NCBI GenBank assembly: GCA_965233195.1
Contig: CBDDSB010000016.1
Coordinates: 155,146-219,145, forward strand
Source of the DNA: an uncultured bacterium
GTDB lineage: Bacteria; Pseudomonadota; Gammaproteobacteria; Burkholderiales; SG8-39
DNA length: 64,000 nucleotides
Direction of reading: 5' to 3'
Positions 30,870 to 49,667 of this stretch are shown piece by piece (the first letter of the stretch is position 1; the number at the start of each line of letters is the position of its first letter). Position numbers and translations under genes: made by a program. The notes beneath the pieces were generated by a model. The model ran no database searches, was not told the DNA's origin, and was given only the letters and a program-made list of their open reading frames with translations.

Positions 30870-31547
30870 TTACAGCGCGCGGCACAGCACGTAGATGTTG
30901 GTGCTGGTTTCAGCGTAGGCCGGGGTCGCGACCTGGCCGACGCCGATCGCCGGGTTCGGCGCCGTCTGGAGCAGCGCCCGCACGGTGCCGAGGTTGGAAG
31001 CGCCGTCGTCCATCTGCGTGTCGACCGCGATCGCGATCTTGTCCGGCAGGTTGGCCGAACACATGATGAGGCCGACAAAACCGTTGCCGCCCGCGGCGTT
31101 GAGCAGGGTCGGACCGGCGGCAGCGTCGCCGGTTTGGACGCCGATCATTCCGGTGACCGCGTTAAACGGCTGCTGCGTGCCGGTACCCGACACGAAGCCC
31201 GCGCGACGCAAATGATCCCACCAGCGGCGCGATTCACCCGCGGCGCCCGCGGCGTCCGCGGCGAGATTATAGGCACCGCCCACCACGCCGTCGCCGGTGC
31301 CGGCGGTCGCGGCCGGCGCTACTGCCCAGCGCGTCGCGGCATTCGGATCGTCGCCCGGAATCGCGCGATAGCGGTCCTGGTAGCCGTGGTACGCGGCCGA
31401 GACGCCCGAGAAGTCGGCGATCACGTTCTTGATCTTCGCCTGGGTGATCATTTCCTGGCCTTTCAGGATGCCGCCGAGCAGCAGCCCGATGATGACCAGC
31501 ACGATCGCGATCTCGACCAGCGTGAAGCCCGTTTGCCTTGCTTTCAT
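30870..31547 (-). CDS. prepilin-type N-terminal cleavage/methylation domain protein (type IV pilin / pseudopilin)
   Basis: 225 aa. Class III signal MKARQTG|FTLVEIAIVLVIIGLLLGGIL with Glu5 after the cleavage Gly. Two Cys near the C-terminus (MCSANL...YVLCRAL) fit a D-region disulfide. Strong RBS AGAGGGAG. Confidence 0.85.
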   Translation of the reverse strand: MKARQTGFTLVEIAIVLVIIGLLLGGILKGQEMITQAKIKNVIADFSGVSAAYHGYQDRYRAIPGDDPNAATRWAVAPAATAGTGDGVVGGAYNLAADAAGAAGESRRWWDHLRRAGFVSGTGTQQPFNAVTGMIGVQTGDAAAGPTLLNAAGGNGFVGLIMCSANLPDKIAIAVDTQMDDGASNLGTVRALLQTAPNPAIGVGQVATPAYAETSTNIYVLCRAL

Positions 31548-31588: not shown

Positions 31589-31606
31589 ACGCAACCCCCG
31601 TGCCAA
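31589..31606 (-). promoter_or_regulatory. sigma-54 (-24/-12) promoter upstream of the detached pilin gene
   Basis: The minus strand reads TTGGCACGGGGGTTGCGT, i.e. TGGCAC-N5-TTGC with exact spacing. The -12 GC lies 44 nt upstream of the pilin ATG (31547). Confidence 0.65.
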
Positions 31607-31694: not shown

Positions 31695-32366
31695 CTAGCG
31701 TCGCGTCCGCGACTCGAGCTCGTGCAGCCGCTGTTTCAGGAAATCGAGCTCCGCCGGATCGGCGATCCTGCCGCTCGCGAGCAGGCCGCCGAGCATGATG
31801 CGAGCCGCCTCGAGCTCGTTCATGTCCTCGAGGATGAAGATCTCCATCTGCCTTGCCCATAGCGGCACGTCGGCCGCGGTGGTGTGGCGATCGATGGCCG
31901 CGGCGTAGCGTCGAGCCAGGGGCAGGTCCTTCAGCCGGTGCTTGGCGAGCAGGGCGGCGTGCGCGAGCCACGGCCAGCGCCGGTTCGGGTCGAGCAGGAA
32001 TTGTTCGTGGATGAGCTCGAGCATCATGCTCGCGCGCGCTGGGTCCGGGTGCTCGGCATAAACGCGCGCCGCTGCGAACAAGGGATATTGCCCACGCGGA
32101 TCGAGCTCGATCAGGGCGCGTAGCCAGGCGGCAAGGCGCGCGTAATCCAGCGCCTGCAGGTCGAATGCCTGTAGATACAGCATGCCCAGCCGCGCCGCGG
32201 CTTGCGTTTCGCCGAAGGTCGCGAGGCGCAGCGCGCGCGCGGAGGGCGCCGGCGGCAGCTCGTCGTCGGCGAGGCGCGGCCGGCCGAGTGCTGCGTGCCA
32301 GGCCGCCTGCGCGGCGAGGCTCGCGGCGAGCAGGACGAGGATCCAGGCCGGGACGGCGCGCGTCAT
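31695..32366 (-). CDS. hypothetical signal-anchored helical-repeat protein
   Basis: Internal Met (MTRAVPAWILVLLAASLAAQA) of ORF 31695-33065, 223 aa. ATGA overlap with the upstream permease-like gene. Amphipathic helical, TPR-like composition. No family recognised. Confidence 0.5.
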   Translation of the reverse strand: MTRAVPAWILVLLAASLAAQAAWHAALGRPRLADDELPPAPSARALRLATFGETQAAARLGMLYLQAFDLQALDYARLAAWLRALIELDPRGQYPLFAAARVYAEHPDPARASMMLELIHEQFLLDPNRRWPWLAHAALLAKHRLKDLPLARRYAAAIDRHTTAADVPLWARQMEIFILEDMNELEAARIMLGGLLASGRIADPAELDFLKQRLHELESRTRR

Positions 32367-33124
32367 ACGTTGCGGCGATGGAAGTCGAATAGCCCCGCAG
32401 CGGTCAGCAGGACGATGTAGACGGCCAGCGCGGCCAGCGCCGCGGTGTATTCGCCGAGCGGCGGCGCGTCGTAGACCAGCCACTCGGTGCGCGTCGCGGC
32501 GTCCACGCGGGGCAGCACGAAGGCGATGGCGTCGACCGCGCCGCGCGCGAGCCAACCGGGCCACGTGTCTGCCGCGAGCGGCGTGCCGGCGAGCACCTGG
32601 ATTGCGGGCATGGCGCGGGCGAGCAGGTAGAGGCCCGCCGTGGCGGCGATGGCGGCGACCACCGTGGACAGCGTCATGGCGAAAAAAAGCGCGGCTGCGG
32701 CGATCAGTGCAGCCTCGATGGCGAGCGAGATGCCCCAGAGCGCGACCTGCAGCGGCGGCGCCCAGGGAAGCAACGCCGCAGAGAAGATCGCGGCTAAAGC
32801 AGTGCCGCAGCCGACGAAGCCCGCGAGGCGTCCGAGATAGTGCGTGGTGCGCGAAAGCGGCAGCGAGAGCATGAGCTCGAGGCCCTTGTCCTGGATCTCG
32901 CGCAGCGTGCCGGCGGTGACTTGCGCGGCGACGAGGAAGACGGCGCACGCGCGCAGCACCCCGGCCAGCACTGCGAGTTGCAGCGCCGCGGTTTCGGTGA
33001 GCGCGACCTGCGAAAGAAAAACCGCGGCAGCGAGGCCGATCGCCAGAGCGCCCGCGGCGAGCCATGGCAATCCGCCGCGGCAGGCTTCGAGCAGGACCGA
33101 GCGGGCGAGCGTGGCGGCGGGCAT
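32363..33124 (-). CDS. ABC-2 type (NosY/GldF-like) permease-like polytopic membrane protein
   Basis: 253 aa with about 6 hydrophobic helices. The loop REIQDKGLELMLSLPLSRTTHYLGRLAGF resembles the E-x-GTLE-LL-x-P-x-SR motif of ABC-2 permeases. Confidence 0.5.
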   Translation of the reverse strand: MPAATLARSVLLEACRGGLPWLAAGALAIGLAAAVFLSQVALTETAALQLAVLAGVLRACAVFLVAAQVTAGTLREIQDKGLELMLSLPLSRTTHYLGRLAGFVGCGTALAAIFSAALLPWAPPLQVALWGISLAIEAALIAAAALFFAMTLSTVVAAIAATAGLYLLARAMPAIQVLAGTPLAADTWPGWLARGAVDAIAFVLPRVDAATRTEWLVYDAPPLGEYTAALAALAVYIVLLTAAGLFDFHRRNV

Positions 33125-33156: not shown

Positions 33157-34890
33157 TTGACTGTGCAACTGACCGCGGCCCGGGCGCCGATTCTTACGCG
33201 CATCGCCAACATGGCCTGGGCCTTCAGCCAGCGCTACTGGCGCGTGGTCCTGGTGGCGATGCTCGCGCTGCTGCACATCGCGGTGTTCCGTGGTGTGGCC
33301 GATCCGTGGGCGCGCGCGTTGCTGCTGGCGCATCTCGGCCTGCTCCTCCTGTGGCAACCGTTCCTGCGCGGCGAGCAGCGCGTCTCGCCGGTCCAGGGCG
33401 TGATCCTCGCGCTGGTCGCGAGCGCAGTGATGCTGCGGCTCGACTGGTGGTTCCTCGCCTTCTGGGTGGTGGTGCTCGCCGGCCTGGTCGGCGGCAAGGT
33501 GTACCAGCAGCATGCACGCTGGCAGCGGCGCTGCTACCTCGTGGTGCTCGCCTACCTGCTCGCGCTGCTCGCCATCGCCATCCTGCCGGAGATCGCGCCC
33601 CGGCGCGAAATCGAGGCCGACGTGCGCGCGTATGCCGAGTACGTGCTGCCCTTCGCGTTCGTGCTGATCGCGCTGTTGCCTTCGGAGCCCGATTCGGCCG
33701 ACGCGCCGCACATCATCGACTTTTTCTACAGCGTGTTCGTGATGCTGGTGATCATGGTCGTGATCCTGGGCAGCTTCACCTTCATGAGCGTGACGCGCAC
33801 GCCGTATCTCGAGGCGCTGACCGCCACCATCTTCGTCACCGCCGGCGCCATGCTGCTCGTCGCCTTGGCATGGAATCCGCGCAGCGGCGGCGGCATCGAC
33901 GTGTTTTTTTCCCGCTACCTGTTCTCGATCGGCCTGCCGGTGGAGAAGTGGATGCAGGTGCTCGCCGAGCTGCTGCAGGTGGAAGCCCGGCCCGAGCGCT
34001 TCCTGAGCGAGGCAGTCGCGGCGCTGCTGCGCGTGCCGTCGGTGGCCGGGGTGCGCTGGCGTGCCGGGGAGAGCGCGGACGAGCAGGGGATTCGCACGCC
34101 GCATGGGGTTGACTACGCTTCGAGCGAGCTCGCGCTCACCATCTTTTCGCGCTATCGCCTCGGACCGACACTGCGCTGGCACCTGCACCTGCTGGGTCAG
34201 CTGCTGGGCGAGTTCTACGTCGCCAAGCTGCGCGAGGAAAAGCTGCGCCAGGCGAGCTATCTGCAGGCGGTGCACGAGACCGGCGCGCGCATGACGCACG
34301 ACATCAAGAACCTGCTGCAGTCGCTCTCGGTGCTGACCTCGGTGGCGGCGCGCGACGACGGCCGGGATTCGGCGCAGCTTCAGGCGCTGCTGCGCCGTCA
34401 GCTGCCGCTCATCGAGCGCCGCCTGTCCGAGACGCTGGAGAAGCTGCAGCGCCCGCAGGAAGGCCGCGAGCACTACGTGGCCGCGCGCCCCTGGTGGGAG
34501 TCGCTCGCGCGCCAGTACCGCGGCGAGGGGGTGGAATTCGAGCCGGCCACGCCGCCGCCGGGCGTGCGGCTGCCGCGCTCACTGTTCGACAGCGTGGCCG
34601 ACAACCTGATCCGCAACGCACTATCGAAGCGCGCTGCCGATGCGGATGTGCGCGTACGCGTAGCCCTTGAATGCGGCGAGCGCGTGGCGCTGCGTGTTTG
34701 CGACAGCGGCGCCGCGATGCCGGCGGACATCGCCGCCAGCGTGCTGCGCGCGCCGGTGAGCTCGCGCAGCGGCCTGGGCATCGGCCTGTACCAGGCGGCG
34801 CGCCAGGCCGAGGCCAGCGGCTATCGCCTGGTGCTGGAGTCCAACCGCGACGGAAAAGTCTGCTTCGCGCTGAGCGGAAAGCCGGCTTAG
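33157..34890 (+). CDS. polytopic sensor histidine kinase (PrsK-like architecture)
   Basis: 577 aa from TTG; an ATG alternative is at 33211. The first ~240 aa are hydrophobic with 6-7 helices. H-box ARMTHDIKNLLQSLSVL, N-box DNLIRNALSK, G-boxes CDSGAAM and GLGIGLY. Confidence 0.8.
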   Translation: MTVQLTAARAPILTRIANMAWAFSQRYWRVVLVAMLALLHIAVFRGVADPWARALLLAHLGLLLLWQPFLRGEQRVSPVQGVILALVASAVMLRLDWWFLAFWVVVLAGLVGGKVYQQHARWQRRCYLVVLAYLLALLAIAILPEIAPRREIEADVRAYAEYVLPFAFVLIALLPSEPDSADAPHIIDFFYSVFVMLVIMVVILGSFTFMSVTRTPYLEALTATIFVTAGAMLLVALAWNPRSGGGIDVFFSRYLFSIGLPVEKWMQVLAELLQVEARPERFLSEAVAALLRVPSVAGVRWRAGESADEQGIRTPHGVDYASSELALTIFSRYRLGPTLRWHLHLLGQLLGEFYVAKLREEKLRQASYLQAVHETGARMTHDIKNLLQSLSVLTSVAARDDGRDSAQLQALLRRQLPLIERRLSETLEKLQRPQEGREHYVAARPWWESLARQYRGEGVEFEPATPPPGVRLPRSLFDSVADNLIRNALSKRAADADVRVRVALECGERVALRVCDSGAAMPADIAASVLRAPVSSRSGLGIGLYQAARQAEASGYRLVLESNRDGKVCFALSGKPA

Positions 34891-35714
34891 GGCAGCACGC
34901 CGGCAGAGATCATGCGGCCGTAGAACTGCCCCACCGGGATCCACAAGAGCAGGTCGTCATACTCGCCGCCGACCGCACCCTGCGGGCGCATGTCGTGCCA
35001 GACGAAGGCGGCATTGTTGTTCAGCGGCGCTGGCAGGCGGTGCTTGTTGTTGATCTGCTCGTCGATGTTGCCCGCGGGCATGGTCGCCAGGTTCTTGCCC
35101 TGCGACCACACGACTGCGGCGACGACCGTCTGGTTGGTCACGACGTTCGCAGCCGGGCCGCAGGTCGGCGTCGCGGCGTTGAACCCTGCCCCGAGGGCCG
35201 AGTTGCATAGCAGCAGATCGCTCGGCATCGTGGTAATGCCGTTGGTTTTGAGGTTCGCCGTATGCGTGAAGTGGGGCACCGTGCCGGCATTGATTGTCTG
35301 CGCCACGGCGTAGCGGATGCGATGGCCCCAGGCGTCGAGCGCGTAACCGCTGCCGTCCGTCGGCTGGAACCCGAGGGTGCGGCCGGGAAGGTACCCGGTG
35401 TAGCCGTCGCTGCAGGCGCCGCCGCCAGCGGGCATGGCGCCGCCGCCAGCCGGCATCTCGTCGCCGCCGTCGCCCGCGGCATTGCAGGCCGGGAAGTTCG
35501 AGCAGCGCGCCGGGCACGGCAACCGGCCGTTGACGATGGCGAAGCTGAGCAGCCCCTCCTTCGCCTGCTCCAAGCGCCGCAGCGTCTCATCGCGGCCGCG
35601 CGCCTCGCTTTGCGCCGACAGCGTGTACATCAGGCTGCTGATCAGGATCGCGACGATGGTGAGCACCACCGCCAACTCGGTGAGGGTGAAGCCCCGATCG
35701 CGTCGCGTCGGCAT
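34887..35714 (-). CDS. prepilin-type minor pilin/pseudopilin, Cys-rich
   Basis: 275 aa. MPTRRDRG|FTLTELAVVLTIVAILISSL class III signal. NGRLPCPA and GYLPGRTLGF...DAWGHRIRYAV motifs. Internal MPAGGGA duplication. Confidence 0.8.
   Translation of the reverse strand: MPTRRDRGFTLTELAVVLTIVAILISSLMYTLSAQSEARGRDETLRRLEQAKEGLLSFAIVNGRLPCPARCSNFPACNAAGDGGDEMPAGGGAMPAGGGACSDGYTGYLPGRTLGFQPTDGSGYALDAWGHRIRYAVAQTINAGTVPHFTHTANLKTNGITTMPSDLLLCNSALGAGFNAATPTCGPAANVVTNQTVVAAVVWSQGKNLATMPAGNIDEQINNKHRLPAPLNNNAAFVWHDMRPQGAVGGEYDDLLLWIPVGQFYGRMISAGVLP
35415..35456. repeat. 21-bp tandem duplication (2 copies, 1 mismatch) inside the 275-aa pilin gene
   Basis: ggcgccgccgccagcgggcat / ggcgccgccgccagccggcat. On the coding strand this encodes MPAGGGA-MPAGGGA. 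Confidence 0.8.
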
Positions 35715-37453
35715 CAGTTCGCGTCAATCACCGCGATGCGGTCGTTGAAGCCCCGGTTGATCATCTGGGTCGGGTCGCGGCTGGCGAAGGAGGTGTTCAG
35801 GTCGCTGTTGCTGCCTTCCAGCCAATCGGTCAGGGTGCCGTTGGGACGCGCGGTTCCGTTCAGGCTGCGGCCGGAGATCACCAGGAGGCCGCGCTGCGTA
35901 TTGCCCGGGTTCATGAACGCGACCGAAAGGCACGTGCCCCCGGTGGTGCAGTTGCGCGGCGCCGCGCCCGCCGGCGAGACGCTCTGCGCCACCGCGTAGT
36001 AGGAAACCTGGTGCCAGTTGTTGCGGAAGAACCAGCTGAAAGTCGCGTCGGTGGAATCGAGGATCGGATGGTCGGCGAGGAAGGCGATCGGGACCGAGAG
36101 GGTTTCGAGCTTGCAGACTTGAAGGAGGCCGAGCACGCCGCACAACAGGTCGCCGAGCAAGCCGCCGAAGCCCACTCCGCCGCCGACGGCGGCCTCGGCG
36201 TTCAAGGTGATGGTGGCCGAACCGCTGGCGTTGAGCACGCCGCCAGAGGTGCGCGGCGCGGCGTTCACGTTGGTCATCGCCGCTGCGTTGTTGAGCTGCC
36301 GCAGCGCCATGCCGACGTTGGCGGCCGTGGCGGTGAGCGTGAACGGCATATTGCCGGCGGGGCAGATGATGAAGCAGCGGCGGTAGAAGTCGCAATCCAC
36401 CGTCGTGGCGGTGGTGGTGCAGGTTGCCGAGTTGATCCCCGCCCCGGCGAGTGAAGCCGCGCTCCAGGCCACGAAGGTGGGGTCGCAGCGCGGGCCGGCG
36501 GTGCCGGGATCACAGGCAATGCCGGAGCCGGGTATCGTCTCGGAGAAGCTGGCGGGCAGCAGGCCGCCAGACGTCGCCGTCGCCGCGCTGCCTTGGAACT
36601 TGTCGAATGGGGCCAGCGTGGGATTGCCGAACGGCGCGGCGAATGGCAGCGCCGGGTTCGCCGGCCAGGCACCGGTCGAGTAGACGGTGCGCAGCTGCGG
36701 CGCGAACTGGCGCTCGAAGCGCGAGGCCACGGCAGCTTCGATTCCAGGCAAGATCTCGGCGCCACTGATCGACAGCACCTGATCGTTGAACGACTCCGCG
36801 GGGCCGGCGCTCTGGAACGCTGTGTTTGCCGGCGTGGTCGCGTTCTCGCACTCGAGGTAGTCGCGCAGGTCGATGGCTGGCGAGGGCGTGGTGCGGCTCT
36901 GCACCCGCGCGTTACAGCCGGCGGCGGCCGCGACCTGCAGCGGCCGTCCCGGCGCGATGATCAGCGCGACGATGTCGCCGGTGGCGTCGAGCGTGAGCTG
37001 ACCTGTCGAGTTCGAATTGATGACGGTGTTGGTCGCTGCGTTGGGCTTCGCCCAGGCCGGCGATACCACGTACCAGAGCGGCTCGCCGGCGATGTCGCGC
37101 CATTTGTCGAGGCCGAGAGTCCGCCAGGGCAGCCGGCCGACGGCGGGCAGCGTGCAATTGCCCGCGGCGATGCCTTCGTTCGCGGTGCCGATGTTGCCGG
37201 CCGCCTCGGGACACGGCAGCCGTCCCGGGTCGTTCTCGGTGGTCATCGCGGTGCGGTGCGCGACGTAGCCGATGAGCGCGCTTTTCGCTTCTTGCAGGAT
37301 GCGCGCGTTGTGCGTCCGGTCCAGCGCCGTGCGGTTGATCGGCGTGCTGATCAGGGTCACGCCCCACCAGGCGGCGCCGAGGATCAGCACCGCGAGCATC
37401 GCCATCAACGCTGCGCCGCTTTGCTGCGCGCGCAGCTTGACTTCGCGATTCAT
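35714..37453 (-). CDS. large Cys-rich GspK-like minor pseudopilin candidate
   Basis: 579 aa. The N-terminus RAQQSG|AALMAMLAVLILGAAWW resembles the GspK-type leader (no Glu5). It shares GRLPCPE and GRLPWRTLGL...PLWYVV motifs with the adjacent 275-aa pilin. About 18 Cys. Confidence 0.5.
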   Translation of the reverse strand: MNREVKLRAQQSGAALMAMLAVLILGAAWWGVTLISTPINRTALDRTHNARILQEAKSALIGYVAHRTAMTTENDPGRLPCPEAAGNIGTANEGIAAGNCTLPAVGRLPWRTLGLDKWRDIAGEPLWYVVSPAWAKPNAATNTVINSNSTGQLTLDATGDIVALIIAPGRPLQVAAAAGCNARVQSRTTPSPAIDLRDYLECENATTPANTAFQSAGPAESFNDQVLSISGAEILPGIEAAVASRFERQFAPQLRTVYSTGAWPANPALPFAAPFGNPTLAPFDKFQGSAATATSGGLLPASFSETIPGSGIACDPGTAGPRCDPTFVAWSAASLAGAGINSATCTTTATTVDCDFYRRCFIICPAGNMPFTLTATAANVGMALRQLNNAAAMTNVNAAPRTSGGVLNASGSATITLNAEAAVGGGVGFGGLLGDLLCGVLGLLQVCKLETLSVPIAFLADHPILDSTDATFSWFFRNNWHQVSYYAVAQSVSPAGAAPRNCTTGGTCLSVAFMNPGNTQRGLLVISGRSLNGTARPNGTLTDWLEGSNSDLNTSFASRDPTQMINRGFNDRIAVIDAN

Positions 37454-37875
37454 TTGCGCGCCGGGGCCGCCTGCACGCGACCGCCCTCGCCAAGAACGTC
37501 GCGCACCTGGCCGGTGCTGCGGTCGAGCACTTCGCCGGGGCGCAGCTCGACGCGCTGGCCGCCTTCGCCGGCGGGCACCGGCACCCGCCCGCCGCGGCGC
37601 TCGGGGTCGATCACCGGCGCGTCGGCCGTGCCTTCGAGCATGGCGTCGCCGTTGACGAATACCGTCGAGCGCCCGCCCGAGCGCTTCACGTAGCCGTCGA
37701 GGCGGGTGGTCGGCGACACAGTGGTCACCGCCGGCCGGTCGGGCACGCGCGCCTTGCGCCGCGCGTCGAGCGCCGCGCGCTGCTCGGGCGTGAAAAACAG
37801 GCGGCCGAGTTCCTGGGAACTCGCATCAGCAACGATCCCCGCAAACAAGATTGTGGATAGAAGGGCGCGCTTCAT
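37450..37875 (-). CDS. small secreted protein, PilP/MshK/GspC-HR-like candidate
   Basis: Internal Met (MKRALLSTILFAGIVADASSQ signal peptide) of ORF 37450-37986, 141 aa. Beta-rich C-terminal part (STVFVNGDAML...VELRPGEVLD). ATGA overlaps on both sides. Confidence 0.4.
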   Translation of the reverse strand: MKRALLSTILFAGIVADASSQELGRLFFTPEQRAALDARRKARVPDRPAVTTVSPTTRLDGYVKRSGGRSTVFVNGDAMLEGTADAPVIDPERRGGRVPVPAGEGGQRVELRPGEVLDRSTGQVRDVLGEGGRVQAAPARK

Positions 37876-38480
37876 CCCTTCGCCGCCCGGTCGATGATGG
37901 TGATGAGGTCGAGGTCGCACTCGCCGCGCAGGCGCGGTGAAATCTGGATGCCGGCCGGCGGCTGGGCGATGCGGGTCAGCGAGCACTGGCGCACCGCGTA
38001 GTAGGCGTTGCCGGAAGCGCGCAGGTCGGCGAGGAAGCGCAGCAGGTCCTCCTCGTGCAGGAGCGCGAGCTGCACGCGCATCGCGCTGGCGAAGAACTCG
38101 ACGTTACCCGGTTTGCCCGGCGCCGAGACCAGCAGCCGCTGGCGGTCGACGCGATACGAAAGGTCGAGCAGCTCGCGCTGCTTGCGGATGCGGGTGATGG
38201 CGTCGGCCCACTCGAGGCGTCGCTCCTCGCCGAGGATGTTGAGCTGCTGGAGGCGCTTGTAGACGTCAAGCTTCTCGATCACCTCGCGCTCCTCCTCGGA
38301 AATGCGCGCGAGGCGCTCGGTGGCCTGCTGGCGCTCGGCCTGCGCCGCCTGCGCCTGCCGCTGCGCTGCGCCGAGCGTGGCGTCGGCGCCCCCGATCAGG
38401 CCGGCGCCGGCCGCGACCAGCAGCGCGGCGAAGAGCGCGGGCAGCGCGAGCTTGCGCAGCTCGTCGGGGGTGAAGGTCAC
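37872..38480 (-). CDS. bitopic assembly protein, GspM/PilO/MshJ-like
   Basis: 202 aa. One N-terminal TM (LALPALFAALLVAAGAGLIGG), a coiled-coil Q/E/R-rich segment, and a C-terminal globular domain. Its position after the GspL-like gene fits. Confidence 0.5.
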   Translation of the reverse strand: MTFTPDELRKLALPALFAALLVAAGAGLIGGADATLGAAQRQAQAAQAERQQATERLARISEEEREVIEKLDVYKRLQQLNILGEERRLEWADAITRIRKQRELLDLSYRVDRQRLLVSAPGKPGNVEFFASAMRVQLALLHEEDLLRFLADLRASGNAYYAVRQCSLTRIAQPPAGIQISPRLRGECDLDLITIIDRAAKG

Positions 38481-40024
38481 GGCAGCCTCCGCGTCAGCGT
38501 GATGGTGAAGCGCGGCGCCTCGCTCGACTCGGCCGCGCCGATGTCGCCGGTGAGCGTGCCCTCCGAAGTGATATCGAATGGTAGCTGGGTACGCGCGAGC
38601 TCGTAGCCGCCGCTTGCCAGGGCCTCGGCGAAGCGCTGCACCTGCGCGGTAATGCCGCGGTAGTCATTGCGCTGCGTCGCGTTGACCCGCCCGGAGAGGG
38701 CGAATTGCACGATCGCCTCGCCTTGGGCCGCGGGTTTTGCTTCGGTGGGGGGAGGTTTCGCGCCTCGCGGGTCGGCGGGCTTGCCCACACTCCAGTTGAT
38801 CAGCTCGACTTCCATCTGCGGGAAGCGGTCGAGCACCCGCGCGGCGTGGACGAACGCGGCGTCGGGCGAGGCGCTGCGCTCGGCGATGCGCCGGAACTCC
38901 ACGACGGTTACGCGCAGGTTCTCGGTGGTCGTCTGCGTCACCGGGAAGGTGGCCGTAATGCGCTCGTACTGCTGCGTCGCCGCGCGCGCTTCGCGCGTTT
39001 GCGACTCGGCGCGTTCGCGCGCGTTCATTGCCTCGAGCCAGCGGTTGCCGCTGAAGAGAGCGCAAACGGCGAACACGGCGGCGCCGGTCGCCACGATGCC
39101 GCGCTGCAGCTGCCAGATGGAATAGTTGCGTCGATCCGCGCTGCTGGCGAACTGCTCGCGCGGCGGCTTGCGCGCCGCGAGCCGGAGATAGAGCGCTTCG
39201 GCGCCGATGCCCTCGGGCGTAGCGCGCAGACCGACGGCGCGCAGGGCGTCGGCGCCGTCGACGGTCTGGAAGGAAACGCGGGCGTCCGACACCAGCATCT
39301 GTTCGAAGAGCGCGCGCTCCCCCGGCGGGGCGACGACCAGCGCGCGCAGCGGCCCGCCGTCGCGCGGCAGGGCGCGCAGCGTGGTCAGGTACTGGGTGAG
39401 GCGCAGCGTCTCCGAGCGCACGAACGCCGCCAGAGCCTGCGCCGGCACCATCTCGACGATGCGCTCAAGGCGCGCGAAGCGCAGCTTGCCGCCGTCGATG
39501 AAGCACTGGCGCAGACCGGCACGGTCGGCGGTTACCACCAGCGCTCGCGCGCCACGGGCGCCAAGGCGCGCCGCGAGGAGCGGGGCGAGCAGCGGCACGG
39601 AGTACACGCCGGCCAGCCGCGCCCCCGCTTCCGCGAGCGCATCGAGCCAGGGCACGAACTGCAGGGTATTGGTGAACGACGTGAGCAACAGCTTCTCGTT
39701 GCGGCGCTGTGGCGTTTGCACCGGGCCGAGCGACAGGGCTGCGGCGAGGCGTGTGTCGCGGTAGCGCTGGGCGAGGCGGCGCTCGACCACCGCCACGCGG
39801 TCGCTGCCGCGCAGCCAGGGCACCTGCTCCTCGTGGAAATCCTCGCCGGCCAGGTCGGCGAGCACGGCGAATAGTGCGCCGCGCCGCCCGCGCAGGAACT
39901 CTCGGAAGGCGCTCACGCCGAGGTCGTCGCCGGAGAACTTGGCTTCGAGCTCAAGCTTGCCGCGCGCCGCGGTGTAGAGGTAATGATCCGCCGCGGTGAA
40001 GTAGAGGAGGTGGCGCACCGCCAT
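38477..40024 (-). CDS. bitopic GspL / fused PilM-PilN / MshI-like assembly protein
   Basis: Internal Met (MAVRHLLYFTAADHYLY) of ORF 38477-41035, 515 aa. A cytoplasmic domain of about 300 aa, one TM (IVATGAAVFAVCALFSG), and a periplasmic domain of about 190 aa. The start shares one nt with the gspF-like stop. Confidence 0.5.
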   Translation of the reverse strand: MAVRHLLYFTAADHYLYTAARGKLELEAKFSGDDLGVSAFREFLRGRRGALFAVLADLAGEDFHEEQVPWLRGSDRVAVVERRLAQRYRDTRLAAALSLGPVQTPQRRNEKLLLTSFTNTLQFVPWLDALAEAGARLAGVYSVPLLAPLLAARLGARGARALVVTADRAGLRQCFIDGGKLRFARLERIVEMVPAQALAAFVRSETLRLTQYLTTLRALPRDGGPLRALVVAPPGERALFEQMLVSDARVSFQTVDGADALRAVGLRATPEGIGAEALYLRLAARKPPREQFASSADRRNYSIWQLQRGIVATGAAVFAVCALFSGNRWLEAMNARERAESQTREARAATQQYERITATFPVTQTTTENLRVTVVEFRRIAERSASPDAAFVHAARVLDRFPQMEVELINWSVGKPADPRGAKPPPTEAKPAAQGEAIVQFALSGRVNATQRNDYRGITAQVQRFAEALASGGYELARTQLPFDITSEGTLTGDIGAAESSEAPRFTITLTRRLP

Positions 40025-41229
40025 CAGAACTTCATTTTCGAGATGGCGTCGTACACCGGTCCGAGCACCGACAGCATCACCCATCCGAGGATCGCGCCCA
40101 GTACCACGGTGAGCAACGGCTCGATCATCGCCTGCACCTTGGCGATCGACTCGCGCACCTCGCGGTTGTAGAAGTAGCTGACGTTGAGCAGCGCGGTGTC
40201 GAGCTTGCCGGTGCCCTCGCCGATGCGCATCATGCGGATCACCAGCGGCGGGAACAGCGACAGATCCTGGAATGCCGCGGTCAGGTTCTTGCCCTCGGCG
40301 ATCTGCTGCCCGGCCTTGCGCAGCGCGCGCTCGAGCGGACGGTTGCCGACGATCTCCTCGCAGCTGCGGATCGCGTCGAGCACCGTGATGCCGGAGCTGT
40401 ACATCATGGCAAAGCTCGAGGCGAAGCGCGACAGGATGATCTTGCGCAGAATCGGGCCGATCACCGGCATGGAGATCTTGTAGCGATCGACCGCGTACTC
40501 CACCGCCGGGTTGGTCCGGATCGCGAGCTTCAGGCCGAACCAGGCGACGAACGGCGCGGCGAGAATCGCCCACCAGTAGCCGACGAAGAAGCTCGACACC
40601 GCCATCAGGATGCGGGTCTGCAGCGGCACCTCCTGCCCCATGTTGCGGATGAAGCCGGTCATCTGCGGCACGAGGTAAATCATCAGGAAGAAGGTGACGA
40701 TGAGCACGATGCTGCCGACGAACGCGGGGTACATGGCGAGCTTCTTGGTCTGCGCGGCGAGCTCGTCCTCCCACTTTAGCGACTCCGAGAGGCTCTGCAG
40801 CACGTCGGCCAGCTTGCCGGTGGCCTCGCCCGAGCGCACCAGGCTGACGAACACCCGGCCGAAGACGTTGGGGTAGTCCGCGAGCGCCTGCGACAGGTTC
40901 TGGCCGCCCTGGATCGATTCGATCAGGCCCGACACCACCTCGCGAAAGCGCGGATTCTCGAGGCTGTCGCGCAGGTCGGTCAGCCCTTCGACCAGGGGCA
41001 CGCCGGCGGTGGCGAGCTGCTCGAGATGGAAGCAAAAGTTGATCAGGTCCTGGCGCGTGACCTTGCCGCCGCCGAACAGGCGCGCCATGTCGCTCGCCAG
41101 CGTGCCGCCCACCAGGTCGAGCTCCATGCGCTGCAGGCGCTGCTCGAGGTCGAACAGGTTGATCGCCTCCAGCCGGCCGACGACCGCCTTGCCCTGCGCG
41201 TCGATCGCCTTGTAGCTGAAGAGTGGCAT
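40024..41229 (-). CDS. type II secretion / type IV pilus platform protein (GspF/PilC/MshG family)
   Basis: 401 aa. Duplicated T2SF domains with three TM segments. LSQALADYPNVFGRVFVSLVRSGEATGKL and the second-repeat motif MMRIGEGTGKLD. Confidence 0.92.
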   Translation of the reverse strand: MPLFSYKAIDAQGKAVVGRLEAINLFDLEQRLQRMELDLVGGTLASDMARLFGGGKVTRQDLINFCFHLEQLATAGVPLVEGLTDLRDSLENPRFREVVSGLIESIQGGQNLSQALADYPNVFGRVFVSLVRSGEATGKLADVLQSLSESLKWEDELAAQTKKLAMYPAFVGSIVLIVTFFLMIYLVPQMTGFIRNMGQEVPLQTRILMAVSSFFVGYWWAILAAPFVAWFGLKLAIRTNPAVEYAVDRYKISMPVIGPILRKIILSRFASSFAMMYSSGITVLDAIRSCEEIVGNRPLERALRKAGQQIAEGKNLTAAFQDLSLFPPLVIRMMRIGEGTGKLDTALLNVSYFYNREVRESIAKVQAMIEPLLTVVLGAILGWVMLSVLGPVYDAISKMKF

Positions 41230-41231
41230 GA

Positions 41232-42941
41232 CTAGGCCATGCGGTCCGTCAGATCGACCACGCGCATCACCTCATCCAGCGAGGTCGATCCCCCGCGCAC
41301 CAGGCGCACGCCGTCGTCGGCGAGGGTCTTGAAGCCGTTTGCGCGCGCCGCCGTGAGGATCTCGCGGGCGGTGGCGCGCCGCGCGATGAGCTCATCGATG
41401 CCCGAGTCGATCTTGAGCAGCTCGAGGATGCTCTGGCGGCCGTTGTAGCCCTGGTATTCGCACTTCTCGCAGCCGACGGCGCGGAAGATGGCGGCCGGCT
41501 CGGTGGGCGAGAGGCCCAGCAGGCGACGGTCCTTGGCGTCCGGCTCGTAGGACTGGCGGCACGTGCGGCACAGGCGCCGGACCAGCCGCTGGCCGATGAT
41601 GCCGATGATGTTGCCGGCGAGGATGTCGGGCACGATGCCGATGTCGAGCAGGCGCGGAAAGGCGCCCACCGCGGAGTTGGTGTGGAGGGTCGAATACACC
41701 TGGTGACCGGTCATGGCCGCGCGGAATGCCATCTCGGCGGTGTCTTGGTCGCGGATCTCGCCGACCAGGATGACATCTGGATCCTGACGCATCATCGCGC
41801 GGATGCCGTTGGCGAAGTCGAGCTTGGCCGCCTCCGACACCGAGGTCTGGCGGATCAGCGTCATTGGGTACTCGACCGGGTCCTCCAGGGTCATGATGTT
41901 CACCCCGTCGGAGTTGATGTGGTTGAGCACCGAGTAGAGCGTGGTGGTCTTGCCGCTGCCGGTCGGGCCGGTCACCAGGATGATGCCCTCGGGCCGCGCG
42001 AGCATGCGCTTCAGCAGCTCGAGCTGCGATTCTTCCAGGCCGAGCTTGTCGAGCGGCACGATGCCCTTTTGCCGGTCGAGAATGCGCAGCACCAGGTTCT
42101 CGCCGTGCGTCGTGGGCAGGCTGGCGACGCGGAAATCGATCACCCGGCCGGCCATGGTCGCCGAAATGCGGCCGTCCTGCGGCGCGCGCGTCTCGGCAAT
42201 GTTCATCTTCGCCATCACCTTGATGCGCACCGCCATCGCCGGCCAGTACGTCTTGTGCAGCGAACGGATCTGGCGCAGCACGCCGTCGATCCGGTAGCGG
42301 ATGCGCAGGAAGTTCTGCTCGGGCTCGAAGTGGATATCGGAGCCGCCGCGCTCCACCGCGTCGGCGAGCAGCGCCGAGATCAGGCGCACCACCGGCTGCG
42401 AGTACTCGTCGCCCTCGGCGACCGTGGCGTAGTCGACCTCGCCGGTCTCGATTTCCTTGAGGATGCCGTCGATCGAGAACTCGTGGCCGTAGTAGTGCTC
42501 GATCGCGCGCTCGATCTCCGATTCGCCGGCCAGGCGCAGCTCGATCTCGTACTCGCCCTTGAGGTGCGCCCGCAGCTGGTCGATCGCCACGATGTTGTTG
42601 GTGTCGGAGAGGGCGACCATGAATTTGCGCTGGCTGCGGTCGAGTGCCACCGGGAACATGCGGTTGCGCCGCGCCATTTCGCGCGGCAGCTGCTTGAGCG
42701 CCGCCGGGTCGACGATGATGCGCGCGAGGTCCACCGACTGCAGTCCCAGCTTCTCGGACAGCGCGTCGCGCAGCGTCGCTTCCGAGACGAAGCCGAGCTG
42801 CACCAGCAGCTTGCCGACCGGGATGTGCTGCTTGGTCTGCTCGAGCAGCGCGATGCGCAGCTGGTCCTCGGTCAGAATCCCCTGGTCGATCAGGATCTGG
42901 CCGATATGGCGCTTCGCCTGCGGCGGAACCGGCTGGTTCAT
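41232..42941 (-). CDS. GspE/PilB/MshE family secretion ATPase with MshEN-type N-terminal domain
   Basis: 569 aa. Walker A GPTGSGKTTT, Asp box, Walker B ILVGEIRD, His box, and tetracysteine CRTC...CEKC. The N-terminus has two 24-aa Leu/Gly repeats separated by 5 aa. Confidence 0.93.
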   Translation of the reverse strand: MNQPVPPQAKRHIGQILIDQGILTEDQLRIALLEQTKQHIPVGKLLVQLGFVSEATLRDALSEKLGLQSVDLARIIVDPAALKQLPREMARRNRMFPVALDRSQRKFMVALSDTNNIVAIDQLRAHLKGEYEIELRLAGESEIERAIEHYYGHEFSIDGILKEIETGEVDYATVAEGDEYSQPVVRLISALLADAVERGGSDIHFEPEQNFLRIRYRIDGVLRQIRSLHKTYWPAMAVRIKVMAKMNIAETRAPQDGRISATMAGRVIDFRVASLPTTHGENLVLRILDRQKGIVPLDKLGLEESQLELLKRMLARPEGIILVTGPTGSGKTTTLYSVLNHINSDGVNIMTLEDPVEYPMTLIRQTSVSEAAKLDFANGIRAMMRQDPDVILVGEIRDQDTAEMAFRAAMTGHQVYSTLHTNSAVGAFPRLLDIGIVPDILAGNIIGIIGQRLVRRLCRTCRQSYEPDAKDRRLLGLSPTEPAAIFRAVGCEKCEYQGYNGRQSILELLKIDSGIDELIARRATAREILTAARANGFKTLADDGVRLVRGGSTSLDEVMRVVDLTDRMA

Positions 42942-43009: not shown

Positions 43010-44293
43010 TCAGCGGGTGAGCTGCGCGGCGCGGGTCTCGGCGCCGGGCAGATCGAAGCGGGCGCCGCGCGCCTTGGCGAGCGCGATGGCGCGCTGGTAA
43101 TAGTCGAGCGCGAGCTTCGGCTGGCGCAGCTGGTCCAGGCTCACCGCGAGGTTGTAGGCGAAATCGGCGTTGTCCGGCTCGGCGGTATACGCCCTGAAGT
43201 ATTCCTGCTGGGCCTCGGCCCAGCGGCCCTGCTGCGCAAGCTGATTGCCGAGGGTGAAATTGAGCACGTGCGACCCCGGATTGTCGGCCAGCACGGATTT
43301 CACCCGGCTCTCCGCGGCCACCGGATCCGTGCGCCCGGCGCGCAACGCGATGAGGGCTGCCAGTGCGTGCGAATCGCGCGGATCGGATTGCAGCAGGCGC
43401 AGGTAGCCGGCCTCGGCATGCTCGAAACGTCCCGCGCGCACGTCGAGCGCGGCGAGGCCGAGCAGCGCGTCGCGATTCGCCGGTTCCTCGCGCAGCGCGT
43501 GCTGGTACTCAGTACGCGCGCTGGCGAGATCGCCCGCGAGGTAGGCGGCGTAGCCGCTGGTGATGTTCGGATGCACCTGTGGCGCCGGCCGGCTCGACGT
43601 GATCTCGGTCGCGGGTGCGGGGCGGGGTGCCTGGAGTCGCGGGGTCTCCGGCGCGCGCTGTATCGGCGGCAGCGGAATCGCCGGCGCAGGCTGCGCAAGC
43701 GCTGGCGGCGCCGGGGGGGTCGGCTGCGGCGCGGGCTTCGACGGGGTTGAGGCCGGGAGGCCGGGAATCGCCGCCGCTGGCACTTGCGGCACCAGGCTCG
43801 GCGTGGGCTTCAGATCCGCGGCTGCGACCTGCGTCTCGCCTGCCGGCGGAGGCGGGTTGCGGTTGACCAGCGCCGCCGGCGGTTGCAGCTGAAGCCAGAA
43901 ATAGACCACGGTGCCGACGGCGAACACGCCGAGCGCGCCCATGGTGATGTAGAAGGGCAGGCGCGGGTTGGGCTCCCGGAACTTTGCCTCGAAGACCTTG
44001 CGAGCGCTGGCGCGGCCGCCCGCCTCCGCGTCGGCCGTGGGTGCGGGTCGCGCGGCCGGCGCGGCCTCGCGCGGCGGCCGGTTCTCGCGCTCCGTCGGCG
44101 GCGCGGGCTTGGCCGGCTGCTCGTCGCCCTCCAGCGCGAGGGGCTGGCGGATATCGGGTAGCTGGTCGCGCGTGACCACCGCCTGCTCGGGTAGCGGAGC
44201 GGGCTCGGCGATCGCAGGCTCGCCGCGCGCGCGGCGCTGCGCCTCCTCCTTGGCCCTTTCCGCCTTCTTCAGCGCCTCGAGCAGCAGGCTCAT
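43010..44293 (-). CDS. GspB/ExeB-like N-terminus + TM + Pro-rich linker + TPR protein (MshN-like)
   Basis: 427 aa. MSLLLEALKKAERAKEE resembles the GspB N-terminus. TM segment FYITMGALGVFAVGTVVYFWL. The C-terminal half has TPR-like A/Y/L repeats. Confidence 0.65.
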   Translation of the reverse strand: MSLLLEALKKAERAKEEAQRRARGEPAIAEPAPLPEQAVVTRDQLPDIRQPLALEGDEQPAKPAPPTERENRPPREAAPAARPAPTADAEAGGRASARKVFEAKFREPNPRLPFYITMGALGVFAVGTVVYFWLQLQPPAALVNRNPPPPAGETQVAAADLKPTPSLVPQVPAAAIPGLPASTPSKPAPQPTPPAPPALAQPAPAIPLPPIQRAPETPRLQAPRPAPATEITSSRPAPQVHPNITSGYAAYLAGDLASARTEYQHALREEPANRDALLGLAALDVRAGRFEHAEAGYLRLLQSDPRDSHALAALIALRAGRTDPVAAESRVKSVLADNPGSHVLNFTLGNQLAQQGRWAEAQQEYFRAYTAEPDNADFAYNLAVSLDQLRQPKLALDYYQRAIALAKARGARFDLPGAETRAAQLTR

Positions 44294-44296
44294 GGC

Positions 44297-46051
44297 TCAG
44301 TCGACCGCGGCGGCGCTGCGCGGCCTGCTCGGATTGGGCTTGCTGAAAAAATCCGCGCCGGGAAGGAGCTGGCGGTAGCCGGCGTAGTCGCCGTCGATGC
44401 TCGCGTCCTTGATCACCACCGCGCGCAGGAAGATCACCAATTCCGTTTTCTGGTTGCCATCCCTGCGCTGCGAGAAAATCTGCCCGATCCCCGGCAGGTC
44501 GCGCACGCCGGGAATCGTGTCCTCGATGTTGGTGACGGCGTCCTGCATCAGCCCGCCGAGCACCGCGACTTGGCCGCTCTGCACGCGCAGCACCGATTCC
44601 ATCTCGCGCGTCTGGATCACCGGCACCAGGCTGGTGACGCCGGCGATGGCGAGGCTCGGGTTGGGGTCGGCGACGTCGCCGATCTTGCGCGAAATGGTCG
44701 GCCGCAGGTTCAGCACCACGGTATCGGTATCGCTGATCTGCGGCACCAGGCTCATGATGAAGCCCACCGGCACCGAATTGAGCGTGGTGGTGAAGGTTGA
44801 AATACCTGGCCCACCCACGGTAGGCGCGGACTGCGTCGCCTGGATGGTGAAATAGACCAGGTTGTCGACCACCTTCAGCACCGCGGTCTGGTTGTTGAGC
44901 ACGCTGATCTTGGGGCTGGAGAGCACGCGCACGTCGCCGAACGACTCGAGGAACTTGAGCGCGAAGTTGAAGTTGAGGCTGGTGATCGCCCCGCCGAACA
45001 CGAATGCATTGGTATTGATGCCCGCAGGGGTGTTGGCGGAGGACTGGCCGAACTCGAGGCCGCTCGCGCCCTGGTTGAAGCTCGGCACGCCGGTCGAGGT
45101 CACGCCGCCCGAGCGCAGCCGCTGCCAGTCAATGCCGCGCTGGTACTGGTTGTTGAGCTGCACCTCCGCCACCGTCGCCTCGATCAGTACCTGGCGGCGT
45201 GCGTTGGTCATCACGTTGTCGAGGAACTCCTGCACCTTCTCGTGCTGGCGGGACGTGGCGCGGATGTTGAGGATTCCCGTCTCCGGGTTGGCGATGACCG
45301 AGGCGGCCTCGCGGAACGTGGCGACCGGCGAGGGCGGCGGCGTGCCCGGGGTGGCGGACGGCGTGGCAGGCGCACCGCCAGGCTGCGCCGCCGAGGTGGT
45401 CGACGGTGGCGGTGGCGGCGGCGCGGCGGGGATCACCTTGTCGGTCTCCTGCAGGATCTCCTTGATGTTCGCGACCAGCGTGTCCCAGAACTTGTTGGCC
45501 GATATCGAATTGATGGTGGCGGTGGAATTGTTCTGCCCGCTCGCTCCCTGGCCCACCAGGCCGCCGGTGACCTGGGTCGACACCGTGGCGATGCTGCGCG
45601 CATCGCGCGTCATATTCACGTAGTCGATGCGGTATACGCGCAGGAAGGGCGTGTCGCGCATCACCACCAGGTTGCCGCCGTCGATCTCGTAGCGCATGTC
45701 GACTTGCCGCGAGATGCGCGTGAGCAGCTGCGGCAGCGTCTGGTCGATGGCATTCAGCGTCACCGTCCCGGTCAGGTCCGGGTGGATATCAACGTTGAGC
45801 CGGGCATCGCGCGCGAGCGCGAACAGCAGCTCCTGCACGCGCACGTTGTTCACCACCACGCTATAGGTCTCGGGGCGCACCGACGGCTTGGGCTGCGGCA
45901 GCATCGGCGTGATCTGCACCGGCGGCGGAATGGTCCCGGCCACGGGCCCCTGCTCACGGAGATGGGAATCGCCCGGCTTGAGCGGCTGCTGGCCGCAACC
46001 GGCGAGGACTGCCACTGCGAACGCGGCTAATGCCGTCTTTGTCGTGCTCAT
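44297..46051 (-). CDS. secretin (GspD/PilQ/MshL family), lipoprotein
   Basis: 584 aa. Lipobox VLAGC, N-domains, a Pro/Ala/Thr-rich linker, and a secretin C-domain (VLSSPKISVLNNQTAVLKV; IPGVRDLPGIGQIFS...TELVIFLRAVVI). Confidence 0.9.
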   Translation of the reverse strand: MSTTKTALAAFAVAVLAGCGQQPLKPGDSHLREQGPVAGTIPPPVQITPMLPQPKPSVRPETYSVVVNNVRVQELLFALARDARLNVDIHPDLTGTVTLNAIDQTLPQLLTRISRQVDMRYEIDGGNLVVMRDTPFLRVYRIDYVNMTRDARSIATVSTQVTGGLVGQGASGQNNSTATINSISANKFWDTLVANIKEILQETDKVIPAAPPPPPPSTTSAAQPGGAPATPSATPGTPPPSPVATFREAASVIANPETGILNIRATSRQHEKVQEFLDNVMTNARRQVLIEATVAEVQLNNQYQRGIDWQRLRSGGVTSTGVPSFNQGASGLEFGQSSANTPAGINTNAFVFGGAITSLNFNFALKFLESFGDVRVLSSPKISVLNNQTAVLKVVDNLVYFTIQATQSAPTVGGPGISTFTTTLNSVPVGFIMSLVPQISDTDTVVLNLRPTISRKIGDVADPNPSLAIAGVTSLVPVIQTREMESVLRVQSGQVAVLGGLMQDAVTNIEDTIPGVRDLPGIGQIFSQRRDGNQKTELVIFLRAVVIKDASIDGDYAGYRQLLPGADFFSKPNPSRPRSAAAVD

Positions 46052-49649: not shown

Positions 49650-49667
49650 GCTTGATAATATTACGCC

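Follow-up and report, generated by a model that had tools for sequence, protein, structure and literature searches.

A 579-amino-acid (aa) pilin-like protein without Glu at position +5, for which we use the working name BIG, is encoded in a 64,000-nucleotide stretch of DNA from an uncultured member of the Burkholderiales (lineage SG8-39; GenBank assembly GCA_965233195.1, contig CBDDSB010000016.1, positions 155,146 to 219,145 of the forward strand; this whole stretch is “the window” below). On balance, we think it probable that BIG is an atypical modular minor pilin, i.e., the apical, first-in subunit of a type IV pilus resembling the mannose-sensitive haemagglutinin (MSHA) pilus, which it would cap together with a 275-aa paralogue encoded directly downstream. 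Homology, domain architecture and synteny carry this reading, and from them we infer cleavage, location at the tip, partner binding and adhesion. A role as tip adhesin or cap is what the data on BIG best suggest, and it bears on an active question: how type IV filaments are initiated and what their tips are composed of.

The BIG Gene and Its Family

Both open reading frames (ORFs) singled out by a first-pass annotation of the window, which was made from the sequence alone, are present on the minus strand with the limits it gave:

35714..37453, minus strand: BIG gene, 579 aa (coordinates from the ORF list, stop codon included)
34887..35714, minus strand: 275-aa prepilin gene; leader G/FTLTE (slash, predicted cleavage site) with Glu5 present; N_methyl match; BIG paralogue and presumed partner

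BIG and the 275-aa pilin gene overlap by a single base, common to the stop codon of the one and the start codon of the other (TGATG), and the BIG start overlaps the stop of an upstream 178-aa ORF (ATGA). With overlaps at both junctions, the three genes are therefore translationally coupled. BIG is a real gene: more than 1322 homologues were found among 8000 candidates scored—those with names are all called “hypothetical protein,” and none has a Pfam domain—and a profile search of 1.84 billion cluster representatives returned 3934 metagenomic clusters (50% identity) at E ≤ 1e-3, 1265 of them at E ≤ 1e-30.

BIG and the 275-aa Pilin Are Paralogues

In a pairwise BLASTP comparison, BIG and the 275-aa pilin align with E = 1e-4 at 24% identity. 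Compared as family profiles with hhalign (36 BIG-family and 34 pilin-family sequences), they align with a probability of 97.9% and E = 4.1e-13 over 120 columns, which places BIG residues 3–132 on pilin residues 1–139. To keep the hydrophobic helix from inflating the score by itself, the comparison was repeated without it (BIG 38–255 vs. pilin 31–275), which gave E = 9.6e-10 over 177 columns and reached pilin residues 35–271; with the whole of alpha-1 removed (BIG 70–255 vs. pilin 63–275), E was 2.1e-7 over 149 columns. This homology is specific, since the family of a third pilin of the cluster, the 225-aa putative major pilin, gave no match to either head when compared without the N-terminal part of alpha-1 (E = 0.16). 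The 225-aa and 275-aa pilin families matched each other over the generic N-terminal 45 columns only.

The motifs that the first-pass annotation had listed for the two proteins were all found in both, in identical order, and the pilin module it proposed proved wider than two motifs, the homology spanning the entire 275-aa pilin (BIG 1–255). Common to both proteins are GRLPCP with a conserved Cys pair (C81/C100 in BIG, C67/C101 in the pilin), G(R/Y)LP-x-RTLG, a strand (W/R)Y(V/A)V, a hydrophobic strand followed by G(R/K), (F/Y)(N/D)D-x-hydrophobic and a C-terminal helix; within each of the two families, the shared motifs and the Cys pair are conserved throughout. By sequence comparison, then, BIG residues 1–255 are a complete paralogue of the 275-aa pilin, comprising leader, alpha-1, five-stranded head and C-terminal helix. 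One could argue instead that the likeness is the generic resemblance of pilin N-termini—a matter of hydrophobic bias, with the shared motifs arising by chance—and the modest pairwise score (E = 1e-4, 24% identity) leaves room for that argument. The alpha-1-free profile comparison and the 225-aa pilin control nonetheless refute it, the family-wide retention of motifs and Cys pair on both sides also speaks against it, and we give it a near-negligible probability.

Domain Architecture of BIG

Six segments of BIG can be told apart (Gly13 is the residue before the putative cleavage site, and position +5 is counted from the residue after it):

37415..37453, minus strand: leader, residues 1–13; short, basic, ending Q-x-G; putative prepilin-peptidase site after Gly13
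37247..37414, minus strand: alpha-1 helix, residues 14–69; hydrophobic N-terminal half and amphipathic C-terminal half, non-polar +5; aligns with alpha-1 of the 275-aa pilin
36758..37246, minus strand: pilin head 1, residues 70–232; homologous to the head of the 275-aa pilin; best conserved region of BIG
36689..36757, minus strand: helix after head 1, residues 233–255 (231–255 in the model); counterpart of the C-terminal helix (261–270) of the 275-aa pilin
36164..36688, minus strand: beta-rich domain, residues ~256–430 (limits approximate); no detectable relatives
35717..36163, minus strand: pilin head 2, residues ~431–579; helix-less duplicate of head 1, ending in the conserved C-terminal strand FNDRIAVID

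The AlphaFold2 model of BIG, built on a 109-sequence alignment, has a mean predicted local distance difference test (pLDDT) score of 89.5 and a predicted template modeling (pTM) score of 0.85. In it the N-terminal helix is 58 residues long, alpha-1 forming two helices (12–35 and 42–69) with a kink at 36–41 near Pro38, and is followed by the five strands of head 1 (104–107, 127–130, 153–155, 158–167, and 225–230), a head whose motifs are GRLPCPE, the Cys81/Cys100 pair, GRLPWRTLG, PLWYVVSP, IIAPG and FNDQV. The model of the 275-aa pilin (pLDDT 79.3, pTM 0.80) has the same order, i.e., helix 11–62, strands 106–108, 134–137, 168–170, 198–203, and 256–260, and helix 261–270, and eight of its nine Foldseek matches, all at E ≥ 1, are type IV pilins (CofA, PilE, PAK, MshA). 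The N-terminal helix plus beta-sheet on which the first-pass annotation had staked its proposal is thus predicted in both proteins as a helix and then five strands. Together with the profile homology, the common order of alpha-1, five strands and helix supports a shared pilin-type module. Our assignment of BIG to the pilins draws on prepilin homology, leader and predicted secondary-structure order rather than on three-dimensional similarity to solved pilins.

Around residues 80–100, between helix and sheet, the 275-aa pilin has a loop with a Gly-rich direct repeat, EMPAGGGAMPAGGGA. This repeat is shorter or absent in homologues and contains the only very low-confidence stretch of the model (pLDDT <50, residues 92–97).

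Beyond residue 255, the modeled beta-rich block spans 296–461, with strands at 296–423 of pLDDT >90. The domain has conserved Cys pairs (314/323 and 345/354, with 438/447 at its boundary) and an invariant-like motif, NVGMALRQL; it is more variable, with insertion hot spots after residues 304 and 397. What follows is a second pilin head. An internal repeat aligns BIG 117–232 with 475–578 (probability 96.3%, E = 1.8e-9), a wider comparison extends it to ~104 vs. 449 (E = 9.1e-8), and each of the five head-1 strands has its counterpart among five strands of the C-terminal region (484–488, 509–512, 520–526, 555–557, and 572–578, preceded by short helices at 473–483). The repeated motifs are D-x-x-G-E-P-L-W-Y-V-V in head 1 and R-N-x-W-H-x-V-x-Y-Y-A-V in head 2, and likewise IIAPGR and VISGRS, DYLEC-x-NA and DWLEG-x-N, and SFNDQVLSI and GFNDRIAVI. 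The conserved C-terminal strand (572–578; FNDRIAVID) is by homology the last strand of head 2, and F569, N570, D571, R572, and D577 are each at least 90% conserved. Compared directly with the 275-aa pilin, neither head 2 nor the middle domain gave a significant match (E = 0.1–0.4), and in sequence terms head 2 is tied to that pilin through head 1 only.

This architecture revises the first-pass description of what BIG has added to the pilin fold. That description put the addition at about 400 aa; as the homology covers the whole 275-aa pilin (BIG 1–255), ~325 aa is the better figure. Its large unrecognized domain holds for the beta-rich part, which has no detectable relatives, whereas the remainder duplicates the head of BIG itself. 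The composition, called Thr/Ala/Gly/Cys-rich in that description, is A 15.5%, G 9.3%, T 9.2%, C 2.4%, and the region is predicted to be well folded rather than of low complexity. Instead of the ~18 Cys reported, we count 14 (residues 81, 100, 180, 202, 314, 323, 345, 354, 360, 364, 438, 447, 502, and 508), of which 12 are conserved and lie as neighboring pairs (81/100, 180/202, 314/323, 345/354, 438/447, and 502/508). The twelve, if paired in this way, fit an exported, disulfide-bonded (oxidized) protein.

Leader and Position +5

The N-terminus of BIG reads MNREVKLRAQQSG / AALMAMLAVLILGAAWW, with the slash at the putative cleavage site: a class III-type leader, short and basic with a terminal Gly, and then a hydrophobic helix. 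Among the 109 aligned homologues, all 97 that cover these positions have Gly(−1) and 92 of the 97 have Gln(−2); Gly+13 is almost invariant, and at position +5 (Ala in BIG) the 107 that cover it (two are gapped) have A, V, L, I, G or T and never Glu. The GspK-style leader of the first-pass annotation—cleavage Gly, hydrophobic helix, no Glu5—is therefore a trait of the family, and the sequence makes Gly13 the likely site of cleavage by a prepilin peptidase. A Gly(−1) leader with a non-polar residue at +5 is the defining trait of GspK-type apical minor pilins (PMC5207764, PMC11870444).

The N-terminal methylation model (PF07963/TIGR02532; Phe or Met at +1, Glu at +5) does not match BIG and matches two of the 36 family members weakly (E = 0.0095), while it matches both neighboring pilins, whose leaders (RDRG/FTLTELAVV in the 275-aa and RQTG/FTLVEIAIV in the 225-aa pilin) have the canonical Phe+1 and Glu+5. 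These three are the only class III-type leaders that a six-frame regular-expression scan found in the window.

Searches for Relatives of BIG

Pfam and NCBIfam returned no family for BIG at E ≤ 0.1, and PHROGs returned none either. Among the 36 BIG-family members, none matched the Pfam T2SSK or PilX_N, NCBIfam GspK, vWA or lectin models (E ≤ 1 for the GspK-type models). The family profile had no match among PDB sequences at E ≤ 10, and Foldseek with the BIG model found nothing below E = 0.1 in PDB or in BFVD (viral predicted structures).

Some homologues (P0048, ~585–646; P0115; and P0306, ~578–646) have insertions of 60–80 aa just before the conserved C-terminal strand. Their matches are weak and sub-threshold only (E1_FCCH, E = 2e-6; a phage major tail PHROG, E = 7e-4; an unnamed PHROG, E = 0.003), and a reading of the ~75-aa P0048 and P0115 insertions as phage-tail-fiber-like was dropped, PHROGs giving one weak unnamed family (P0048, E = 0.0027) and Pfam none. 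The insertions suggest that the site before the C-terminal strand tolerates grafted modules.

The Pilus Gene Cluster and Its Conservation

BIG and the 275-aa pilin gene lie in a cluster with the following further features:

48912–50429, minus strand: ATP-binding cassette (ABC) ATPase with an N-terminal extension of ~260 aa
47558–48940, minus strand: sigma-54 response regulator, conserved in the cluster
46143–47555, minus strand: ExeA/MshM-like AAA ATPase
44297–46051, minus strand: MshL-type secretin (MshL gives the top secretin score, 245.8 bits, narrowly short of its 250.2 cut-off; GspD, 161)
43010–44293, minus strand: tetratricopeptide repeat (TPR) protein
41232–42941, minus strand: GspE/MshE-type ATPase with an N-terminus of the type that binds cyclic di-GMP (c-di-GMP; MshEN 53.6 bits, cut-off 23.1; c-di-GMP motif domain 57.2 bits, cut-off 38)
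40024–41229, minus strand: GspF/PilC platform
38477–39970, minus strand: 497-aa protein of no recognizable family
37872–38480, minus strand: 202-aa protein of no recognizable family
37450–37986 (unedited; 37450–37875 as 141 aa), minus strand: 178-aa ORF or 141-aa secreted protein of no recognizable family
33157–34890, plus strand: histidine kinase, divergently transcribed, pairing with the sigma-54 response regulator; PrsK relative, sub-threshold (72 bits vs. 300)
32363–33124, minus strand: ABC-2 type permease
31695–32420, minus strand: 241-aa secreted protein
31591..31605, minus strand: perfect sigma-54 promoter, TGGCAC-N5-TTGC, read from the sequence, ~44 nucleotides upstream of the ATG of the 225-aa pilin gene
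30870..31547, minus strand: 225-aa prepilin gene, putative major pilin; N_methyl match; head unrelated to BIG or the 275-aa pilin

A scan of one genome per species gave 80 loci, all but one labeled as from metagenome-assembled genomes (MAGs). They come mostly from uncultured Betaproteobacteria/Burkholderiales, and their gene order is almost invariant: a homologue of the 275-aa pilin lies directly downstream of BIG in 64 of the 65 loci with enough downstream sequence, and the 178-aa gene precedes BIG in 69 of 72. Median identity to the proteins of the window rises from 40% for BIG, the least conserved gene of the cluster, through 48% for the 275-aa pilin, 68% for the 225-aa pilin and 78% for the GspF-type platform to 87% for the GspE-type ATPase. 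Within BIG, conservation is highest in head 1, and the beta domain and head 2 vary more and bear the insertions, a pattern in keeping with a conserved end for docking and a distal end that is exposed.

Pairs of BIG and 275-aa pilin homologues also occur as orphans without machinery nearby. One (L028, 9893–12450) has neighbors that include glycogen-debranching-type enzymes and a Rieske oxygenase; another (L023, 10001–12543) is in the same MAG as a canonical locus (L045). Given these orphans and the conserved adjacency, the pair therefore behaves as a two-gene module, and some genomes carry a second, perhaps alternative, tip module.

The 225-aa pilin is the likely major subunit because its gene has the sigma-54 promoter and because it exceeds the other two pilin-like genes in conservation and forms the largest 90% cluster (40 members). 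The promoter, together with the conserved response regulator and histidine kinase, suggests PilS/PilR-like control of this gene.

Known type IV systems have three or four minor pilins, often plus a separate large adhesin, and the canonical tips of type IVa pili, MSHA pili and type II secretion pseudopili are built around an I-J-K trio, often with H. Here, no third minor pilin besides BIG and the 275-aa pilin was found in the 80 loci, no PilY1- or MshQ-like gene was found in the cluster, and no MshB/C/D/O/P or MshQ model matched. The cluster shares with MSHA-type systems the MshL-type secretin, the MshE-type ATPase with its c-di-GMP N-terminus, the ExeA/MshM-like ATPase and the TPR protein, but it has only BIG and the 275-aa pilin where those systems have MshB/C/D/O/P and the large MshQ. 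Taken whole, it is a variant MSHA-like cluster whose minor pilins are fewer and different.

Comparison with Known Apical and Modular Pilins

Minor pilins of the GspK family have a non-polar +5 residue, are large and rigid, and form the first and topmost subunit (PMC5207764, PMC11870444). BIG resembles GspK/PilK proteins (PilX, XcpX, MshP) in its Gly(−1) leader and non-polar +5, in being the largest pilin-like protein of its cluster (579 vs. 275 and 225 aa), in its predicted rigidity, in the position of its gene beside that of another minor pilin and in its conserved extreme C-terminal strand. In GspK such a strand completes the pilin-domain sheet (PMC12918778), and in BIG it is by homology the last strand of head 2. 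BIG differs in that none of 36 family members matches T2SSK, PilX_N or NCBIfam GspK and Foldseek finds no match, in that its extra mass is C-terminal and beta-rich whereas GspK has an alpha domain inserted between strands 1 and 2, and in that there is no I-J-K triad here, the sole companion being one paralogous pilin. The GspK-like label of the first-pass annotation accordingly stands for the +5 residue, size and leader, but fails on family models, architecture, synteny and Foldseek. By analogy, BIG most likely works like an apical subunit of the GspK/PilK/CpaL type and does not belong to the GspK family.

CpaL/TadG of Tad (type IVc) pili have been proposed to enter first and sit at the tip (PMC11870444, PMC12918778), and in CpaL-like apical pilin-like proteins of ~600 aa the conserved extreme C-terminal strand licenses assembly (PMC12918778). 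BIG is alike in length, in an N-terminal pilin-like domain without the subunit-stacking residue, in a large middle with beta-rich parts that lack structural relatives and in the conserved C-terminal strand; however, it has no vWA domain or Tad-type motifs (Pfam), its machinery is of the GspE/GspF/MshL type and its C-terminal strand belongs to the duplicated head.

Pilins with added modules can be accommodated at the tip alone (PMC8179133). With modular pilins such as PilB and PilC of Streptococcus sanguinis (PMC8179133), BIG has in common a complete pilin module followed by extra module(s), an architecture expected at the tip only, and—as for PilC, which works with a smaller partner pilin—a companion of lesser size. 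Its extra modules, by contrast, are not recognizable domains, and one is a second pilin head; we found no published description of a second, helix-less pilin head, as the sequence indicates here, used as an added module. BIG also lacks the IPR012902/N_methyl signature by which modular pilins are found, and signature-based surveys would therefore miss it.

A two-pilin tip receptor is known from Thermus thermophilus (ComZ and PilA2; PMC6561018), where an unusual large pilin and a small partner pilin form a proposed two-protein tip complex, much as we propose for BIG. The extra part of ComZ, though, is a beta-solenoid inserted within the pilin fold, and neither Foldseek nor the PDB sequence-profile search found a match of BIG to ComZ. 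In type IVb systems, CofB/TcpB likewise have a pilin domain followed by C-terminal, disulfide-stabilized beta domains and initiate filaments tip first (PMC5207764), but they keep Glu5, form homotrimers, are the sole minor pilin of their system and are not matched by BIG in Foldseek or in the PDB sequence-profile search.

A Model for the Filament Tip, and Its Rivals

In type IV filaments, each subunit, as it comes in, pairs through its Glu5 with the N-terminus of the one above. We hypothesize that a prepilin peptidase would cleave BIG after Gly13 and that BIG, which has no Glu5 for pairing upward, would sit only at the top of the filament, the one position possible for such a subunit. BIG and the 275-aa paralogue would pair in the inner membrane as a small priming complex, beneath which the c-di-GMP-responsive MshE-type ATPase would polymerize the 225-aa major pilin, expressed from its sigma-54 promoter. 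The priming complex would then traverse the MshL-type secretin and become the cap, with the variable distal beta domain and head 2 facing outward, where they would be likely to bind a ligand or surface. In this way BIG would unite roles that other systems divide among two proteins, a PilK/GspK-type pilin and a PilY1/MshQ-type tip protein. We propose priming and capping because BIG lacks Glu5, is the largest pilin, is predicted to be rigid, has a coupled, Glu5-bearing paralogue, evolves fastest and keeps its C-terminal strand, and because the cluster has no PilY1/MshQ-like gene.

Several points weigh against this proposal. All source organisms are uncultured, and cleavage, export and presence of BIG in a filament are predictions. 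With only one other minor pilin here, the analogy to I-J-K(-H) is incomplete. The predicted pilin fold of BIG is founded on sequence homology and secondary-structure order: Foldseek on the BIG model finds no pilin (best E = 0.17, unrelated beta folds), and even the 275-aa pilin model matches known pilins at E ≥ 1 only. No binding domain is recognizable in BIG by Pfam, NCBIfam or PHROGs, and no prepilin peptidase gene was identified in the window, which was not fully searched for one.

Two rival readings draw on some of these same observations. If the cluster encoded a type II-like secretion machine, BIG would be a functional GspK, i.e., a rigid, bulky piece capping a short pseudopilus in the periplasm, restricting how long this grows, gating the secretin and pushing out the substrate. 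The ATPase and platform do score 530 and 303 bits against the GspE and GspF models, the cluster has no retraction ATPase, its conserved neighbors include an ABC transporter and a regulator pair, and BIG is large, predicted to be rigid (pTM 0.85) and without Glu5, as is GspK (PMC5207764). Yet the best secretin model is MshL (246 bits vs. 161 for GspD), the MshE-type c-di-GMP domain of the ATPase scores above its cut-off, no GspC, GspL, GspM, GspH, GspI or GspJ model matches in the cluster, and BIG fails the GspK tests of both sequence and architecture. The putative major subunit, moreover, is at 225 aa far above GspG (134 positions in the NCBIfam model) and has a strong sigma-54 promoter of its own, as expected of an abundant fiber subunit. 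We consider a secretion machine of this kind unlikely.

Somewhat further down the scale, and quite improbable in our view, is the possibility that BIG is never cleaved and serves as a pilin-derived, signal-anchored assembly or alignment factor of the inner membrane, comparable to the membrane-anchored GspL, GspM or PilN-like parts. Such a role would accommodate the missing N_methyl match, Phe+1 and Glu+5 and the failure of Foldseek to retrieve any pilin for BIG, and with accessory proteins here too divergent to classify, one more unusual component is conceivable. However, an invariant Gly after Gln plus a basic residue before the hydrophobic stretch is a cleavage-site pattern for which a plain anchor has no need; the BIG gene adjoins and is coupled to a pilin gene rather than lying among the machinery genes; orphan pairs of BIG and pilin exist without machinery; and BIG is the fastest-evolving gene of the cluster, unlike core machinery.

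Within the apical-pilin proposal itself, a more specific arrangement can be drawn, which we put forward tentatively and think rather doubtful. The tip would consist of two gene products with three homologous heads, two from BIG and one from the 275-aa paralogue, forming a pseudo-trimeric cap that replaces I-J-K(-Y1), and FNDRIAVID would act as a “licensing” strand in cis, as in GspK and CpaL. If true, such a cap would represent a different and simpler way of initiating filaments, and the BIG/275-aa pair would capture how duplicating and fusing one pilin gene gives rise to tip complexes.

The analysis suggests a two-gene tip made from one duplicated pilin head and a domain without known relatives. 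BIG falls within the established conceptual frame of apical and modular pilins, though its duplicated-head architecture is unusual, and its family is large (3934 clusters), without a name or domain model and invisible to standard pilin-signature surveys. The system is common in uncultured Betaproteobacteria of soil and groundwater, and with a c-di-GMP-binding ATPase domain and a sigma-54 promoter before the major pilin gene it may be their main attachment organelle. The confident BIG model makes the protein a practical target for multimer modeling and for expression in a related cultured host.

Accessory Genes of the Cluster

The start of the 178-aa ORF is most likely at MKRALL (37875), which gives the 141-aa form a Sec-type signal peptide; the protein has an invariant motif, LGRLFFTPEQR. 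No Pfam or NCBIfam family was found for it or for the 497- and 202-aa proteins, and their profiles had no meaningful match to PDB sequences; by size and position (that of PilM/N/O/P or MshI/J/K), the three may be MshI/J/K-like. In most of the 80 loci the ABC ATPase, the ABC-2 permease and the 241-aa protein belong to the conserved gene set of the cluster, and we take them to recall the PilGHI ABC transporter of the Myxococcus pil locus.

In a subgroup of loci (L002, 12668–14032; also L011, L022, L025, L029, L030 and others with a gap of ~1.3 kb), a gene for a 454-aa membrane protein, absent from the window, lies between the 275-aa pilin and kinase genes; judged by eye from its motifs, this protein appears to have a C-terminal class III nucleotidyl cyclase-like domain.

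The best or near-best NCBIfam models for the kinase, the AAA ATPase, the response regulator and the TPR protein are XrtA/PEP-CTERM models (PrsK, the system ATPase, PrsR, and PrsT, respectively), well below their cut-offs. A PEP-CTERM/exosortase system was rejected, the kinase, regulator and ATPase being sub-threshold relatives only, and the four proteins are instead paralogues of the XrtA/PEP-CTERM regulatory set that were recruited to the pilus cluster.

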